Below, in pieces: positions 19,273 through 26,537 of a stretch of DNA of 38,987 bases (position 1 is its first letter; each line of letters begins with the position of its first letter). The position numbers and the translations under genes are program-made. This DNA comes from a phage. The notes below the pieces were generated by a model. That model had not been told where the DNA came from. It saw nothing but the letters and a program-made list of their open reading frames with translations, and made no database searches. The stretch lies in sequence record PZ379547.1; one strand, 5' to 3'.

Positions 19273-20841
19273 ATGGCTGAACGTGAAGGGTTCGCTGCTG
19301 AAGGAGCCAAAGCGGTCTATGACCGACTGAAGAACGGTAGACAGCCATATGAGACACGCGCTCAGAACTGTGCTGCTGTCACTATCCCGTCACTGTTTCC
19401 TAAGGAGTCCGACAACTCGTCTACTGAGTACACAACTCCGTGGCAAGCTGTAGGTGCTCGCTGTTTGAACAACTTGGCTGCAAAGCTGATGTTGGCATTA
19501 TTCCCTCAGTCACCGTGGATGCGACTGACAGTCTCCGAATATGAGGCCAAGACCTTGAGTCAGGACTCAGAGGCAGCTGCTCGTGTTGACGAAGGGCTGG
19601 CTATGGTCGAGCGTGTGTTGATGGCCTACATGGAGACCAACAGTTTCCGTGTGCCATTGTTCGAAGCTCTGAAGCAGCTTATCGTCTCCGGTAACTGTCT
19701 GCTCTACATTCCAGAGCCTGAACAGGGAACCTACAGTCCTATGCGAATGTACCGCTTAGTGTCATACGTTGTTCAACGTGATGCGTTCGGTAACATCTTG
19801 CAGATTGTGACTCTCGACAAGGTAGCGTTTAGTGCTCTACCGGAGGACGTGAAGTCTCAACTCAACGCAGATGACTATGAGCCTGACACCGAGCTGGAAG
19901 TGTATACGCACATCTACCGTCAGGACGACGAGTATCTACGCTACGAGGAAGTGGAAGGCATTGAGGTAGCAGGGACCGATGGTTCTTACCCACTGACTGC
20001 CTGTCCATACATCCCGGTACGAATGGTTCGACTGGACGGTGAAGACTACGGTCGTTCTTACTGCGAGGAGTATCTGGGAGACCTTAACTCGCTGGAGACG
20101 ATTACAGAAGCTATCACCAAAATGGCTAAGGTAGCCTCCAAGGTGGTGGGCCTCGTTAACCCGAACGGTATCACGCAACCTCGTCGTCTGAACAAGGCGG
20201 CTACAGGTGAGTTCGTGGCTGGTCGCGTTGAGGACATCAACTTCCTGCAACTGACGAAAGGTCAGGACTTTACGATTGCCAAGTCGGTGGCTGACGCTAT
20301 CGAGCAACGTTTAGGCTGGGCCTTCCTTCTTAATAGTGCTGTTCAGCGTAATGCAGAGCGTGTCACTGCTGAAGAGATTCGTTATGTTGCTGGCGAACTG
20401 GAGGCGACCTTAGGTGGCGTGTACTCAGTACAGTCACAAGAGCTTCAGTTACCTATCGTCCGTGTGCTGATGAACCAACTTCAGTCTGCTGGCATGATTC
20501 CTGACCTTCCGAAAGAAGCAGTAGAGCCTACTGTCTCCACTGGTCTGGAAGCGTTAGGTCGTGGTCAGGACTTGGAGAAGCTGACTCAGGCGGTTAACAT
20601 GATGACTGGTCTTCAGCCGCTATCTCAGGACCCGGACATCAACTTGCCGACCCTTAAGCTACGACTCCTGAACGCTCTGGGTATCGACACCGCTGGCCTA
20701 CTCCTGACGCAAGACGAGAAGATTCAGCGCATGGCTGAGCAGTCGTCTCAACAGGCAGTTGTCCAAGGTGCTGGCGCTGCTGGTGCTAACATGGGCGCTG
20801 CTGTAGGTCAGGGAGCTGGTGAGGACATGGCTCAAGCCTAA
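19273..20841 (+). CDS. gp8: Portal (head-tail connector) protein (T7 gene 8 homolog), 522 aa
   Basis: YETRAQNCA..TIPSLFPK, TPWQAVGAR, RMYRLVSYVVQRDAFGN, RMVRLDGEDYGRSY, TAEEIRYVAGELE match recalled T7 gp8. Confidence 0.95.
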   Translation: MAEREGFAAEGAKAVYDRLKNGRQPYETRAQNCAAVTIPSLFPKESDNSSTEYTTPWQAVGARCLNNLAAKLMLALFPQSPWMRLTVSEYEAKTLSQDSEAAARVDEGLAMVERVLMAYMETNSFRVPLFEALKQLIVSGNCLLYIPEPEQGTYSPMRMYRLVSYVVQRDAFGNILQIVTLDKVAFSALPEDVKSQLNADDYEPDTELEVYTHIYRQDDEYLRYEEVEGIEVAGTDGSYPLTACPYIPVRMVRLDGEDYGRSYCEEYLGDLNSLETITEAITKMAKVASKVVGLVNPNGITQPRRLNKAATGEFVAGRVEDINFLQLTKGQDFTIAKSVADAIEQRLGWAFLLNSAVQRNAERVTAEEIRYVAGELEATLGGVYSVQSQELQLPIVRVLMNQLQSAGMIPDLPKEAVEPTVSTGLEALGRGQDLEKLTQAVNMMTGLQPLSQDPDINLPTLKLRLLNALGIDTAGLLLTQDEKIQRMAEQSSQQAVVQGAGAAGANMGAAVGQGAGEDMAQA

Positions 20842-20859
20842 ACTATCACTATAGGAACA
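20837..20859 (+). promoter_or_regulatory. Phage RNAP promoter (T7 phi9-like position)
   Basis: cctaaactatcactataggaaca; +1 G at 20854; overlaps portal stop. Confidence 0.8.
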
Positions 20860-21824: not shown

Positions 21825-21847
21825 ACTAAACTATCACTATAGGGAGA
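21825..21847 (+). promoter_or_regulatory. Phage RNAP promoter upstream of capsid gene (T7 phi10-like), with 5' leader hairpin
   Basis: actaaactatcactatagggaga; +1 G at 21842; leader GGGAGACC ... GGUUUCCC can pair, like the T7 phi10 leader. Confidence 0.9.
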
Positions 21848-21949: not shown

Positions 21950-22999
21950 ATGGCAAAAGTTCCGGGTCAGAAAGTTGGTACAGACCAAGGTAAAGGCAAA
22001 TCTGGTTCCGACGCTCTGGCGTTGTTCCTGAAGGTCTTTGCTGGCGAAGTCCTGACAGCATTCACTCGCCGCTCTGTAACTGCTGACAAGCATATTGTCC
22101 GTACCATTCAGAACGGTAAGTCTGCTCAGTTCCCGGTCATGGGTCGCACCTCTGGTGTGTATCTGGCTCCGGGTGAGCGACTGTCCGATAAGCGTAAAGA
22201 TATCAAACATACCGAGAAAGTGATTACCATTGATGGTCTGCTGACTGCCGATGTGATGATTTTCGACATTGAAGACGCGATGAACCACTATGACGTGGCT
22301 GGCGAGTACTCCAACCAGTTGGGCGAAGCTCTGGCTATCGCTGCCGATGGTGCGGTACTGGCTGAGATGGCTATTCTGTGTAACCTACCGGCTGCATCTA
22401 ATGAAAACATCGCTGGTCTTGGCAAAGCGTCTGTGCTGGAAGTTGGTACTAAAGCAGGCCTGAACACTCCGGCTAAGCTGGGTGAAGCAATCATCGGTCA
22501 ACTGACCATTGCTCGTGCGAAGCTGACATCCAACTACGTTCCTGCTGGCGACCGTTACTTCTACACCACGCCGGACAACTACTCTGCAATCCTCGCGGCT
22601 CTGATGCCGAACGCTGCTAACTATGCTGCGCTGATTGACCCAGAGACTGGTAACATCCGTAACGTAATGGGCTTCGTGGTTGTTGAAGTTCCACACTTGA
22701 CTCAGGGTGGTGCTGGGGAAACTCGTGGTGCCGATGGTATCACTATTGCGACTGGTCAGAAGCACGCCTTCCCAGCTACTGCTACTGGTGATGTTAAAGT
22801 TGCTCTGGACAACGTTGTGGGCCTGTTCTCTCACCGTTCTGCTGTGGGTACTGTGAAGCTTCGTGACTTGGCGCTGGAACGTGACCGTGACGTCGATGCT
22901 CAGGGCGACCTGATTGTTGGTAAATACGCTATGGGTCACGGTGGTCTGCGTCCTGAAGCGGCTGGCGCACTGGTTTTCAGTCCAGCAGCAGCGGGTTAA
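21950..22999 (+). CDS. gp10A: Major capsid protein 10A (T7 gene 10A homolog), 349 aa
   Basis: LALFLKVF.GEVLTAF, KRKDIKHTEKVITIDGLLTADV, LMPNAANYAALIDPE, VGTVKLRDLALER, AMGHGGLRPEAAG match recalled T7 gp10A; strong SD (taggag). Confidence 0.97.
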   Translation: MAKVPGQKVGTDQGKGKSGSDALALFLKVFAGEVLTAFTRRSVTADKHIVRTIQNGKSAQFPVMGRTSGVYLAPGERLSDKRKDIKHTEKVITIDGLLTADVMIFDIEDAMNHYDVAGEYSNQLGEALAIAADGAVLAEMAILCNLPAASNENIAGLGKASVLEVGTKAGLNTPAKLGEAIIGQLTIARAKLTSNYVPAGDRYFYTTPDNYSAILAALMPNAANYAALIDPETGNIRNVMGFVVVEVPHLTQGGAGETRGADGITIATGQKHAFPATATGDVKVALDNVVGLFSHRSAVGTVKLRDLALERDRDVDAQGDLIVGKYAMGHGGLRPEAAGALVFSPAAAG

Positions 23000-23262
23000 T
23001 GACCTTCAGGACTCTCTCTACTGAGGGTCCTACCTTGGAAACCTTGGAGTCCTCAGTGGGTGTCAGTATTAAGGTTGACTTCCCTGAGCTGGCAGATGTG
23101 ACCGACTGGTCTCTGCTGGATGTAACCATGCCGGATGGTGTGAGCTACTCTCGTAGAACTTCAAGTCTCTACTTCAAGGCCACCGATGCTGTGACAGGTC
23201 TTGTAACTGTTGGATATGACGGGTCTACCGTTAGGTCATTCAACGTTTCGTTCACAAACTAA
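21950..23262 (+). CDS. gp10B: Minor capsid protein 10B, predicted -1 frameshift product (shift at G GTT TTC, 22972-22978, into the 22999..23262 frame)
   Basis: Heptamer GGTTTTC lies 6 codons before the 10A stop; the -1 frame stays open for about 94 more codons to TAA 23260-23262; same arrangement as T7 10A/10B. Confidence 0.65.
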
Positions 23263-23268
23263 TTGAAA

Positions 23269-23304
23269 CCCCTTGGGTGCCTTCGGGTGCTTGAGGGGTT
23301 TTTT
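23269..23304 (+). terminator. Strong intrinsic terminator after capsid gene (T7 Tphi-like)
   Basis: CCCCUUGGGUGCC-UUCG-GGUGCUUGAGGGG (13-bp stem with G-U pairs, UUCG tetraloop) followed by UUUUUU. Confidence 0.9.
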
Positions 23305-23319
23305 GCTTAAGGAGGGCCT

Positions 23320-23886
23320 ATGGCTCAATACATTCCACTGAACGCTAACGATGACTTAGATGCCATCAACGATATGTTAGCTGCTATAGGTGAACCAGCA
23401 GTCCTACAGCTTGACGAGGGTAACGCTGACGTCTCTAACGCTCAACGTATCCTACATCGTGTCAATCGTCAGGTCCAAGCTAAAGGCTGGAACTTTAACA
23501 TCAACGAAGCTGCTGTCCTGACACCTGATGTCCAAGACAATAGGATTCGATTCTTGCCGTCATACCTTCGTGTAATGACCGCTGGGGCCACCAGCTACTA
23601 CAGCAACATGGGTGGATACCTGTACGACCTGTCCACTCAGTCGACCACTTTCACCGACCCTATCACGGTAGAGCTTGTGGAGATGAAGCCATTCTCAGAG
23701 ATGCCTGTGGTCTTCAGGGACTACATCGTTACCAAGGCCAGCCGTGAGTTCAACGCTAAGTTCTTCGGTAGCCCAGAGTCTGAACTGTACCTTCGTGAGC
23801 AGGAAGCAGAACTCTATCAGCAGGTCATGGAATACGAGATGGATACTGGTCGCTACAACATGATGTCCGACATAGGGAGAGACTAA
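23320..23886 (+). CDS. gp11: Tail tubular protein A (T7 gene 11 homolog), 188 aa
   Basis: INDMLAAIGEPAV, NAQRILHRVNRQVQAKGWNFNI, FRDYIVTKASREFNAKFFGSPE, MEYEMD match recalled T7 gp11. Confidence 0.92.
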   Translation: MAQYIPLNANDDLDAINDMLAAIGEPAVLQLDEGNADVSNAQRILHRVNRQVQAKGWNFNINEAAVLTPDVQDNRIRFLPSYLRVMTAGATSYYSNMGGYLYDLSTQSTTFTDPITVELVEMKPFSEMPVVFRDYIVTKASREFNAKFFGSPESELYLREQEAELYQQVMEYEMDTGRYNMMSDIGRD

Positions 23887-24113
23887 TGGCTAGTCACAAC
23901 CTGAAGATTCACCGCCAGCACTTTGGTCCGGTACAACTAGGTCTAAAGACAGCAGAGCTGAGACTTAACGACAGGGACTTTAAGGTTGGCGATTGGCTTA
24001 TCCTGAATGAGTGGGACAACGGGTATACTGGACAACAGGTAGCACGTAAGGTTGTCCACATTGCTGACGTTGGTGACATCGCTGAGGGATACGTCCTAAT
24101 GAGTATGATCTAA
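23886..24113 (+). CDS. ASCH/DUF3850-like small protein (75 aa) inserted between tail tubular genes 11 and 12
   Basis: LKIHRQHFGPVQLGLKTAELRLNDRDFKVGDWLILNEWD...GYVL fits the G-x-K-T-x-E-x-R ... NDR.F.VGD pattern I recall for ASCH/DUF3850; ATG overlaps gp11 stop. Confidence 0.6.
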   Translation: MASHNLKIHRQHFGPVQLGLKTAELRLNDRDFKVGDWLILNEWDNGYTGQQVARKVVHIADVGDIAEGYVLMSMI

Positions 24114-24122
24114 GGAGGGCCT

Positions 24123-26480
24123 ATGCCACTTATCACACAAAGCATAAAAAATCTTAAAGGTGGAATTAGCCAGCAGCCTGACATACTGAGGTTCTCAGAC
24201 CAAGGCGAGGCGCAGGTTAACTGCTGGTCATCAGAGAGTGATGGCCTCCAGAAGCGTCCACCTACAGTCTTCAAGCGACGTCTTAACATCGACGTTGGGA
24301 GCAACCCTAAGTTCCACCTGATTAACCGTGATGAGCAGGAGCAGTATTACATCGTGTTCAACGGGTCCAACATTCAGGTAGTTGACTTGAGCGGTAATCA
24401 ATACTCAGTTTCCGGTGAGGTAGACTACGTTAAGTCGTCCAACCCGCGAGATGACATCCGTGTCGTTACTGTTGCAGACTATACGTTCGTCGTTAACCGT
24501 AAGGTTGTCGTTAAAGGTGGAAGCGATAAGTCACACTCTGGTTATAATCGTAAAGCACGCGCTTTAATTAACCTGCGCGGTGGACAGTATGGTCGCACCC
24601 TTAAGGTAGGAATCAACGGTGGAGTTAAGGTCTCGCATAAGCTGCCAGCAGGTAATGATGCCGAGAATGACCCACCTAAGGTGGACGCTCAAGCCATTGG
24701 TGCAGCTCTGAGAGACCTTCTTGTTGCTGCCTATCCTACCTTCACGTTCGACCTTGGGTCTGGCTTCCTGCTAATCACAGCTCCTTCAGGGACCGACATT
24801 AACTCAGTGGAGACTGAGGATGGATACGCTAACCAGCTAATCAGCCCAGTCCTCGACACGGTGCAAACAATCTCTAAGTTGCCTCTTGCGGCTCCAAATG
24901 GGTACATCATTAAGATTCAAGGTGAGACCAACAGTAGCGCCGATGAATATTACGTGATGTACGACTCCAACACTAAGACGTGGAAGGAGACAGTAGAGCC
25001 GGGAGTGGTCACTGGGTTCGATAACACCACAATGCCACATGCTCTGGTGAGACAATCTGACGGCTCCTTTGAGTTCAAGACTCTGGACTGGTCCAAGCGT
25101 GGTGCTGGTAATGATGACACAAACCCTATGCCTAGCTTCGTGGATGCCACGATTAACGATGTGTTCTTCTACAGGAACAGGCTGGGGTTCTTGTCAGGTG
25201 AGAACGTAATCATGAGCCGTTCAGCCAGCTACTTTGCGTTCTTCCCTAAGAGTGTGGCTACACTGAGTGATGATGATCCTATTGACGTAGCTGTAAGTCA
25301 TCCTAGAATCTCAATCCTTAAGTATGCCGTTCCGTTTAGCGAGCAGCTACTACTTTGGTCGGATGAGGTGCAGTTCGTGATGACAAGCTCTGGGGTCCTT
25401 ACCTCGAAGTCTATCCAGCTTGATGTAGGCTCAGAGTTTGCTTTAGGAGATAATGCCAGACCGTTCGCTGTAGGACGCTCAGTCTTCTTCTCAGCTCCTC
25501 GTGGGTCATTCACCAGCATTAAGCGATACTTCGCTGTAGCTGATGTGTCTGATGTGAAGGATGCTGATGATACAACCGGTCACGTATTGTCCTACATCCC
25601 TAACGGGGTGTTTGACATTCAGGGGACAGGGACTGAGAACTACATCTGCGTCAACTCTACAGGTGCATACAACCGAATCTACCTCTACAAGTTCTTGTTT
25701 AAGGACGGCGTACAGCTTCAAGCCTCTTGGTCGCACTGGGAGTTCCCTAAAGCTGATAAGATTCTGGCGTCTGCGTCGATTGGCTCTACCATGTTCATTG
25801 TTCGTCAGCACCAAGGCGGCGTGGACCTTGAGCACCTTAAGTTCATCAAGGAGGCAACTGACTTTCCGTTAGAGCCATATAGACTCCACGTTGACTCCAA
25901 GGTGTCTATGGTCATCCCAATTGGCTCGTTTAATGCTGACACATATAAGACTACGGTTGACATTGGTGCTGCTTATGGTGGTAATGCTCCGTCTCCCGGT
26001 CGGTACTATCTGATTGACAGTCAGGGTGCTTATTTGGACCTTGGTGAATTGACCGACATCTCAACTGTGGCTGTACTCAATGGTGATTGGTCAGGACGTA
26101 CAGTGTTCATCGGACGGTCTTATCTGATGTCCTACAAGTTCTCACGGTTCCTGATTAAGATTGAAGACGAGAGTGGCACTCAGTCTGAAGACACTGGTCG
26201 TCTACAGCTTCGTCGTGCTTGGGTAAACTACAAGGACACTGGCGCTCTTAGACTCATTGTCAGAAACGGTGAGCGGGAGTTCGTGAACACCTTTAATGGG
26301 TACACCCTTGGTCAGCAAACCATAGGTACTACCAACATTGGGGATGGTCAGTATCGATTCGCTATGAATGGCAACGCATTAACCACGAGTCTAACCTTAG
26401 AGTCCGACTATCCTACCCCGGTATCCATCGTTGGGTGTGGCTGGGAGGCGTCATACGCTAAGAAAGCTCGTTCCGTCTAA
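24123..26480 (+). CDS. gp12: Tail tubular protein B (T7 gene 12 homolog), 785 aa
   Basis: SQSIKNLKGGISQQPDILR, GLQKRPP, VTVADYTFVVNR, NRLGFLSGEN, DDDPIDVAVS, RLQLRRAWVNY, GCGWE match recalled T7 gp12. Confidence 0.95.
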   Translation: MPLITQSIKNLKGGISQQPDILRFSDQGEAQVNCWSSESDGLQKRPPTVFKRRLNIDVGSNPKFHLINRDEQEQYYIVFNGSNIQVVDLSGNQYSVSGEVDYVKSSNPRDDIRVVTVADYTFVVNRKVVVKGGSDKSHSGYNRKARALINLRGGQYGRTLKVGINGGVKVSHKLPAGNDAENDPPKVDAQAIGAALRDLLVAAYPTFTFDLGSGFLLITAPSGTDINSVETEDGYANQLISPVLDTVQTISKLPLAAPNGYIIKIQGETNSSADEYYVMYDSNTKTWKETVEPGVVTGFDNTTMPHALVRQSDGSFEFKTLDWSKRGAGNDDTNPMPSFVDATINDVFFYRNRLGFLSGENVIMSRSASYFAFFPKSVATLSDDDPIDVAVSHPRISILKYAVPFSEQLLLWSDEVQFVMTSSGVLTSKSIQLDVGSEFALGDNARPFAVGRSVFFSAPRGSFTSIKRYFAVADVSDVKDADDTTGHVLSYIPNGVFDIQGTGTENYICVNSTGAYNRIYLYKFLFKDGVQLQASWSHWEFPKADKILASASIGSTMFIVRQHQGGVDLEHLKFIKEATDFPLEPYRLHVDSKVSMVIPIGSFNADTYKTTVDIGAAYGGNAPSPGRYYLIDSQGAYLDLGELTDISTVAVLNGDWSGRTVFIGRSYLMSYKFSRFLIKIEDESGTQSEDTGRLQLRRAWVNYKDTGALRLIVRNGEREFVNTFNGYTLGQQTIGTTNIGDGQYRFAMNGNALTTSLTLESDYPTPVSIVGCGWEASYAKKARSV

Positions 26481-26487
26481 CTTATTG

Positions 26488-26537
26488 AAGGGCCTATAGA
26501 TTTACCTTAACTATCACTATAGGGACTATAGGCCCTT
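26488..26537 (+). repeat. Perfect 12-bp inverted repeat (aagggcctatag / ctataggccctt) bracketing the gene 13 promoter
   Basis: Arms at 26488-26499 and 26526-26537, read directly. Confidence 0.8.
26505..26527 (+). promoter_or_regulatory. Phage RNAP promoter (T7 phi13-like position)
   Basis: ccttaactatcactatagggact; +1 G at 26522. Confidence 0.85.

Follow-up and report, generated by a model that had tools for sequence, protein, structure and literature searches.

A DUF3850 gene of predicted minimal ASCH fold at a variable junction between tail genes 11 and 12 of Kayfunavirus

The 38,987-nucleotide phage sequence PZ379547.1, referred to here as the window, comes from a T7-like phage of the genus Kayfunavirus (K1F-like) and carries a small open reading frame (ORF) between genes 11 and 12, which encode the tail tubular proteins A and B. 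We find that this ORF is a full member of the DUF3850 family and of the ASCH superfamily, and we regard it as almost certain that its identity, its expression and its dispensability, taken jointly, have been read correctly. On balance we also favour the view, held with appreciably less assurance, that the product is a non-essential late accessory protein acting on modified cytosine. A first-pass annotation of the window had placed a 75-residue ORF between the two tail genes, and we recovered it at the same coordinates, on the same strand and with the same ATG (Table 1), which is the first start codon of its reading frame. The gene is a known feature, since an identical protein has been deposited and labelled in many Kayfunavirus genomes; identical or near-identical proteins appear in GenBank as 'RNA-binding protein', 'DUF3850 domain-containing protein', 'activating signal cointegrator' or 'hypothetical protein', and a literature search found no paper discussing the gene in Kayfunavirus. 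The new details are the polymorphism of the slot, a deletion in phage K1F and the recoding of a ribosome-binding site, all of them ordinary in kind. Over the 1.1 kb around the ORF the window is 99.9% identical to Escherichia phage vB_Eco_ZCEC02 and 94–98% identical to many phages of E. coli, Salmonella and Klebsiella.

Family membership and predicted fold

The ASCH-like signature that had been suggested for the ORF is borne out by two Pfam profiles, both of which match above their cut-offs. The window protein scores 70.1 bits against DUF3850 (PF12961, cut-off 22.9, E = 1.9e-19), its residues 4–73 covering positions 2–76 of the 77 in the profile, and 26.2 bits against ASCH (PF04266, PUA-like clan, cut-off 21.2, E = 1.4e-5) over residues 7–65. 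It also matches PHROG 986, which is labelled 'RNA-binding protein'. NCBIfam gave no useful match, and PADLOC-DB no significant one, the best being PDC-M07B (E = 0.007, 14 bits, 34 residues). By sequence alone the protein matches the solved DUF3850 structure PDB 3IUW with E = 1.2e-10. An AlphaFold2 model built from 47 diverse homologues has a mean predicted local distance difference test score (pLDDT) of 96.1 and a topology of one strand, a helix and four further strands; when it was used as a Foldseek query the first match was 3IUW, with a template modelling (TM) score of 0.92, followed by YqfB, PH0355, PF0470, TthASCH, the ASCH domain of TRIP4, ZmASCH and EOLA1. The predicted structure therefore has the fold of the family member 3IUW. 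Fold prediction had been proposed as the check on the ASCH assignment, and the profiles, the sequence match to a solved structure and a confident model all support an ASCH/PUA fold, with no sign of any other. The product is shown by the model as a slightly acidic five-stranded β-barrel of 75 residues with one helix, which is the predicted minimal form of the ASCH (PUA-like) fold. 3IUW itself is the 'activating signal cointegrator' NP_814290 of Enterococcus faecalis V583, a structural-genomics DUF3850 structure; this bacterial or prophage protein of 83 residues has no reported function or ligand and so transfers no mechanism.

In an alignment of 274 domains the window protein holds 24 of 24 family-signature positions, each of them conserved in 82–99% of the domains. 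Signature residues H4, L6, K7, F13, G19, K21, E24, R26, N28, D29, R30, G35 and D36 are all present, as are E42, T48, G49, H58, G68-Y69-V70 and S73. Twelve polar positions are nearly invariant (H4, K7, K21, E24, R26, N28, D29, R30, D36, E42, H58 and S73), and the protein has all twelve. The ASCH octapeptide GxKxxExR lies on strand 2 as G19-L-K21-T-A-E24-L-R26, followed by N28-D29-R30, and a profile alignment places G19, K21, E24 and R26 on YqfB G19-R-K21-T-I-T24-I-R26. The catalytic-motif Lys occurs in 269 and the Glu in 267 of the 274 aligned domains.

The family is large, with 18,922 representatives of 50%-identity clusters in public data (E ≤ 0.001), and consists mostly of stand-alone proteins of 75–100 residues. 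These are slightly acidic, with a median isoelectric point (pI) of 6.2, against 6.4 for the window protein. Among 95 multidomain relatives, fusions were found to DUF551 (10), to DUF7415 (2) and, once each, to MazG-like, Lar and Anti-TRAP domains. This set is consistent with phage accessory regions and does not decide the function.

Occupancy and history of the gene 11/gene 12 junction

T7 and K1F share with the window the same flanking genes, their order and the Tphi-11-12-phi13 layout. The difference lies at the junction of genes 11 and 12: T7 has a spacer of 23 nucleotides (nt) and, as the first-pass annotation had said, no gene there; in K1F the gene 12 start falls on the stop codon of gene 11; and in the window the ORF is contained in 237 additional base pairs (bp). 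The limits of this segment are ambiguous by 3 nt, the ATG being repeated at both ends.

We compared 26 Kayfunavirus-like loci from IMG/VR, K1F, PE3-1, T7 and three loci with diverged alleles, together with an out-group sample of 56 T7-like loci of other genera. Four junction states were seen. In the empty 'type A' (...GGT CGA GAC TAA TAGGAGGTGAT ATG) the spacer of 11–13 nt is comparable to those elsewhere among T7-like phages; about 27 GenBank records have this state, among them SH3/4/5, Dev2, GW1 and SFPH2. In the filled state (...GGG AGG GAC TAATG-ORF) the encoded alleles range from 100–93% identity to the window protein (window type) through 85% (L015), 68% (L034 and L035) and 61% (Pectobacterium phage LET1) to 45% (the L026/P0038 type). 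In the empty 'K1F type' (...GGG AGG GAC TA ATG-gene 12), seen in K1F, PhiNW-B1, Pipis, YZ1, ZG49 and others (about 15 records), gene 12 begins exactly at the start position of the ORF. The fourth state is a different insert, an HNH/endonuclease-VII-like ORF that fills the slot in two T7-like contigs of other genera, so that the junction is a recurrent landing site for small inserts. These two ORFs lie at about 2060–2390 of L077 and 2060–2440 of L086 and share the motif C..C...DH.H..G..R..LC..CN.

GenBank holds 218 records whose gp11 is at least 80% identical to that of the window. A DUF3850 protein at least 80% identical is present in 155 of them, and some of a further 26 have one at 60–80%, which puts the gene in roughly 70–80% of sequenced members; in the IMG/VR sample it was present in 13 of 24 Kayfunavirus-like loci and absent from 11. 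A look at the junction in relatives, which had also been proposed, thus finds the slot empty in T7 and in about a quarter of Kayfunavirus, K1F included, as well as in 54 of the 56 loci of other T7-like genera, where the spacer is only 8–35 nt; DUF3850 occurs in none of the 56. These presence/absence data support the earlier reading of an acquired accessory gene. They do not support calling the insertion unexpected, since it is the majority state in the genus and is already annotated in GenBank. Because K1F, SH3–5, Dev2, GW1 and others are viable isolates without the gene, it is dispensable.

One GenBank record with the gene, MT350292.1, is named 'Enterococcus phage EFA-1'. It carries at 24449–24673 a DUF3850 gene whose product is 100% identical to that of the window, adjoining a tail tubular protein A gene; the record looks like a Kayfunavirus, so either the Gram-positive host given for it may be an error or the isolate may have been contaminated. 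In phage B1 (PMC12785254, Table 1) the DUF3850 ORF40 is followed by ORF41 (24,315–24,791), a 158-residue 'hypothetical protein' overlapping the start of gene 12, which probably reflects either a false gene prediction or a gene 12 start set at the wrong place.

This is a lineage-specific accessory gene of Kayfunavirus, and the sequences suggest that it entered the gene 11/12 junction once and then diverged. The 5' junction is identical in all filled alleles, and a neighbour-joining tree without bootstrap support groups the slot alleles in one clade, apart from their nearest outside relatives, DUF3850 genes of lambdoid nin regions and siphoviruses at 59–65% identity; the common junction and the single clade are our reasons for proposing one acquisition in the genus. 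Type A looks ancestral, because it resembles the out-group spacers and because the most divergent Kayfunavirus-like locus (L027) has it. In L015, L034 and L026 the type-A ribosome-binding site of gene 12 is retained just after the ORF stop, which places the original insertion between the gene 11 stop and that site.

The K1F-type sites retain the GGGAGG recoding, which is not seen elsewhere without the ORF; they have a gene 12 allele of the window type (98% identity), and no other T7-like locus sampled has their start-on-stop arrangement. Most simply, the K1F state would be secondary, the product of a precise 237-bp deletion between the two ATGs, and the gene would then have been lost repeatedly in the genus, this deletion included. 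A foreign base composition was sought and rejected: the GC content of the ORF is 0.489 and that at third codon positions (GC3) 0.533, the same as in its neighbours. The composition seems to be fully ameliorated and the residence of the gene correspondingly long.

The ORF allele travels with the gene 12 allele and not with gene 11. Between L034 and the window the gp11 proteins are 100% identical (synonymous divergence, dS, 0.26), the ORF products 68% identical (dS 1.7) and the gp12 N-termini 73% identical, which indicates a recombination breakpoint at the gene 11/ORF border, at the gene 11 stop codon; in L035 gp11 is 99.5% identical to that of the window and the DUF3850 allele 68%. The usual small insert of T7-like late regions is a homing-endonuclease gene. 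A homing-endonuclease or mobile-element insertion was rejected for the window, where the ORF product matched only DUF3850 and ASCH and no HNH, GIY-YIG or LAGLIDADG domain.

The closest DUF3850 proteins outside the genus include those of Erwinia phage Midgardsormr38 (ORF68), Kagunavirus, Tunavirus and P2-like Yersinia phages. Their genes are likewise small, stand-alone and placed in variable regions; elsewhere in phages DUF3850 genes stand in the nin region, in runs of small genes or, in P2-like phages, in the slot after gene A. These are early, replication-proximal or lysogenic-conversion regions, whereas the window gene belongs to the late tail operon, where it is coupled to gene 11.

Selection, translation and transcription

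The ratio of non-synonymous to synonymous substitution rates (dN/dS) is about 0.1 overall across 16 distinct alleles. Pairwise values are 0.05–0.16 between canonical alleles and 0.2–0.35 to the most divergent allele, compared with 0.00–0.15 for gp11, and none of 18 loci has a disrupted copy. Judged by these substitution patterns the ORF is more than a chance reading frame and is under purifying selection.

The ORF begins at TAATG (23884–23888), where its ATG shares an A with the TAA stop of gene 11. All 20 carrier loci that were fetched read GGGAG(G/A)GAC TAATG at this point, where empty type A sites show the synonymous sequence GGTCGAGAC TAATAG. Type-A genomes encode the final Gly-Arg pair of gene 11 by GGT CGA, and every carrier encodes it by GGG AGG or GGG AGA; this synonymous recoding uses rare Arg codons and yields a GGAG core 6 nt upstream of the ORF ATG. 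A recoding that co-varies with the presence of the gene argues strongly for translation of the ORF and is the strongest sequence evidence for it. Translation would be coupled to that of gene 11 through the stop/ATG overlap together with the ribosome-binding site in the last Gly-Arg codons.

The frequent loss of the gene in the genus, and the loss of the N-D-R motif in two alleles, might be taken as signs of a decaying passenger without current function. We regard this as highly improbable, given that dN/dS stays low even to the most divergent allele, that no copy is disrupted, that the Shine-Dalgarno sequence within gene 11 is kept in all carriers, and that GC and GC3 cannot be told from those of the neighbours, which implies long residence.

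Also very unlikely, in our view, is a role in tail structure or assembly, whether of the free protein or of a -1 frameshift fusion of gp11 and DUF3850. The gene does stand between two tail-tube genes and appears translationally coupled to gene 11, and its frame (-1 relative to gene 11) runs without a stop through the 29 codons that precede the ATG. There is, however, no slippery heptamer of the form X XXY YYZ anywhere in gene 11, and the fusion was rejected on that account. Homologues elsewhere sit in early, nin or accessory regions and not among tail genes; K1F and L004, with gp11 and gp12 98–100% identical, build tails without DUF3850; and in phage B1 the protein is absent from the six abundant virion proteins found by mass spectrometry, in what was a shallow survey.

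The nearest upstream phage-RNA-polymerase promoter for the transcript of genes 10, 11, DUF3850 and 12 is the phi10-like site at 21828, whose sequence is identical to the promoter core given in the annotation of phage PE3-1 (Table 1). No phage promoter was found between this site and 26508, and hence none from the Tphi-like hairpin, annotated as phiTE in PE3-1, to the phi13-like site. A scan of the ORF flanks gave no sigma-70-like or terminator-like site above chance. Since genes 11, DUF3850 and 12 sit 3' of the hairpin they need terminator read-through, and by analogy with the T7 model the gene is probably expressed late, with genes 11 and 12, by read-through at Tphi. The classical phage moron brings its own promoter and terminator. 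The window gene resembles a moron in being present or absent between two conserved neighbours and in being dispensable; it differs in having neither signal, its expression being borrowed from gene 11, and a classical moron was therefore rejected.

The first-pass annotation had also drawn attention to a start context common to genes 11 and 12. The 15-mer TAAGGAGGGCCTATG does stand at both starts, as the only two exact copies in the window (about 0.01 matches with up to two mismatches are expected by chance), but it is not tied to the insertion, the gene 11 copy being independent of the presence of the ORF. It precedes gene 11 in the ORF-less genomes L016, L017 and L021 and is replaced by unrelated sequence in the ORF carriers L005, L006, L008–L010, L014 and L020. 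The gene 12 copy is limited to the window-type allele, from which L008 and L009 deviate by two bases and one base, respectively; other alleles (L015 and L034) have the ancestral GGAGGTGAT site before gene 12. The presence of copies without the ORF, their absence in carriers and the alternative gene 12 site led us to reject the idea that the two copies are a duplicated target site or a scar of recombination. The AAGGAGG and ATG elements constrain ten positions of the 15-mer, and a third near-copy lies upstream of gene 14 (27000). We conclude that the 15-mer is a shared strong ribosome-binding site and not an insertion scar, its copies possibly homogenised by short-patch recombination. A copy with one mismatch (TAAAGAGGGCCTATG) lies on the minus strand at 814–828, near the left genome end.

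Two further variable places were seen upstream of gene 11. In L004, L006, L014, L010 and L020 there is no Tphi hairpin directly upstream of gene 11 and the 70 nt there are unrelated, so that the gap between genes 10 and 11 makes a second variable slot, whose content does not follow the DUF3850 state. An 87-residue ORF at 22999–23262 (plus strand; PHROG 7473, unknown function) begins, in the -1 frame, on the final base of the gp10A stop codon and occupies the place of the 10B frameshift extension of T7. K1F and L006 have a different sequence there, which makes the C-terminal extension of the capsid protein allelic within the genus as well.

Table 1. Features of the gene 11/gene 12 region and its expression signals, in window coordinates.
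Feature	Position	Strand	Details
DUF3850 / minimal ASCH-fold gene	23886..24113	+	75 aa, ATG start
Gene 11, tail tubular protein A / adaptor	23320..23886	+	188 aa; Pfam Tube, E = 3.6e-46; PHROG 446; 100% identical to K1F gp11
Gene 12, tail tubular protein B / nozzle	24123..26480	+	785 aa; Pfam Phage_nozzle, 1092.8 bits, E = 0
Extra 237 bp relative to K1F	23889..24125	+	Alignment of window, K1F and PE3-1; junction table
Shine-Dalgarno GGGAGA of DUF3850 ORF	23875..23880	+	Formed by last Gly-Arg codons of gene 11, 6 nt before ATG
TAAGGAGGGCCTATG, copy 1	23308..23322	+	Ribosome-binding site and start codon of gene 11
TAAGGAGGGCCTATG, copy 2	24111..24125	+	DUF3850 ORF stop codon, then ribosome-binding site and start codon of gene 12
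Phage-RNA-polymerase promoter, phi10-like	21828..21845	+	Exact match to promoter core annotated in PE3-1
Second copy of promoter, phi9-like	20840-20857		Same promoter core
Phage promoter, phi13-like	26508..26525	+	Downstream of gene 12
Tphi-like terminator hairpin, then U-run	23265..23302	+	17-bp stem, -25.2 kcal/mol, z = -5.1

Likely function of the protein

The explanation that we favour is that the product is a non-essential, host-dependent fitness factor and not a part of the virion. Its ASCH Lys/Glu dyad (K21 and E24, with R26) would bind and probably hydrolyse N4-acylated or otherwise modified cytosine, the substrate being either a nucleoside or a base in host RNA such as tRNA. Our best guess, by analogy with characterised ASCH proteins, is a minimal amidohydrolase, or at least a reader, of such cytosines; the specific chemistry at K21, E24 and R26 is offered tentatively, as a possibility that we would not yet call probable. 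The 12 near-invariant polar residues and the slightly acidic pI suggest a specific pocket or active site rather than general binding of nucleic acid. In vitro, every one of 19 ASCH proteins assayed, none of them a DUF3850 protein, removed N4-acetylcytidine (ac4C) from tRNA of E. coli, and wherever mutants were made the Lys and the Glu/Thr of the octapeptide proved essential (bioRxiv 10.64898/2026.02.27.708502). The Lys and Glu/Thr pair of the ac4C amidohydrolases is present here as K21 and E24, both nearly invariant in the family.

Several observations weigh against this explanation. YqfB (E. coli, 9KYF/9KYH) and TthASCH (T. thermophilus, 2DP9) are ac4C amidohydrolases of 103–121 residues with a C-terminal helical segment that carries Glu74 in YqfB and Tyr81 in TthASCH. 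The 75-residue window protein ends before this pocket-completing segment, its alignment with YqfB stopping at YqfB residue 60; catalysis could therefore be lost or need a dimer or partner, although Y69 might substitute for the aromatic contact of the missing part. Compared with these two enzymes DUF3850 has its own invariant residues (H4, K7, N28-D29-R30, E42 and H58). With the catalytic dyad present and the C-terminal pocket segment missing, membership of the ac4C-amidohydrolase group is only partial. ZmASCH and TRIP4, which have the same motif, did not hydrolyse free ac4C. ZmASCH (Zymomonas mobilis, 5GUQ) is a single-strand-specific ribonuclease of 143 residues with extra helices, about 9% identical to the window protein, and its deposited structures carry mutations at Y47 and S128. 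Two slot alleles, those of the L026/P0038 type and of phage LET1, lack the N-D-R motif and yet are intact ORFs. Removing ac4C late in infection would bring a T7-like phage no obvious benefit, and translation of the gene is itself deduced from the DNA.

The two alleles without N-D-R (L026 4067–4291, equal to P0038 with 11 member sequences, and LET1, L036 4001–4219) have PSIPE and PYDEG in place of the N28-D29-R30 region. Both retain K21, E/D24 and R26, and their activity may be altered or relaxed.

Domain fusions also count against an RNA-directed enzyme and are the main argument for a non-catalytic reader or binder, probably of DNA or a modified DNA base, that would serve as a nuclease shield, a decoy or a regulator. 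In phages DUF3850 is fused to ParB-CTPase domains beside parA, in place of the usual DNA-binding domain of ParB (PNAS 2025), which points to DNA and not RNA, as do the proteins of predicted defence loci in which ASCH is fused to helix-turn-helix (HTH) domains or to HsdS. The ASCH-like protein BapA, a 5-hydroxymethylcytosine (5hmC) glycosylase, flips 5hmC out of DNA, and one DUF3850 protein is fused to the restriction-alleviation domain Lar. A slightly acidic protein would, however, be an unusual nucleic-acid binder, a pure reader would have no need of a near-invariant catalytic Lys and Glu, and the top structural neighbours of known function are enzymes; we consider a reader of this kind somewhat unlikely.

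The labels attached to PHROG 986 and to many GenBank records, and the original prediction for the ASCH superfamily, would instead make the product a generic RNA-binding protein that tunes the translation or stability of late phage mRNA. The label is a transferred prediction and the protein has an acidic net charge; elsewhere among phages the gene lies in nin-type or accessory regions with no constant RNA-related neighbour, and it is dispensable in many natural isolates. Such a role seems to us improbable.

About equally doubtful is a bolder reading, in which DUF3850 would be a phage counter-defence deacylase, present in the accessory regions of thousands of phages, that reverses host acylation. 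It might undo the N-acetylation carried out by toxin or abortive-infection modules of GNAT type, whose genes are regular neighbours of those for ASCH proteins, or it might strip ac4C34 from elongator tRNA-Met and so escape or blunt a tRNA-directed defence. If this were true, the presence or absence of the gene in Kayfunavirus would track the defence repertoire of the host.

The slot amounts to a natural experiment: its position is fixed, its diverged alleles number at least five, empty sites are of two kinds, K1F has a precise deletion and gene 11 has had a ribosome-binding site carved into it. Taken together, these features indicate that the gene is not only expressed and selected but also dispensable. 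The DUF3850 family is very large and enriched in phages, and it has a solved structure. Kayfunaviruses are easily engineered and have therapeutic uses against E. coli K1, Salmonella Typhi and Enterobacter. For these reasons, and because natural plus/minus pairs exist in the genus, isogenic pairs with and without the gene would be a practical means of finding the function of DUF3850.

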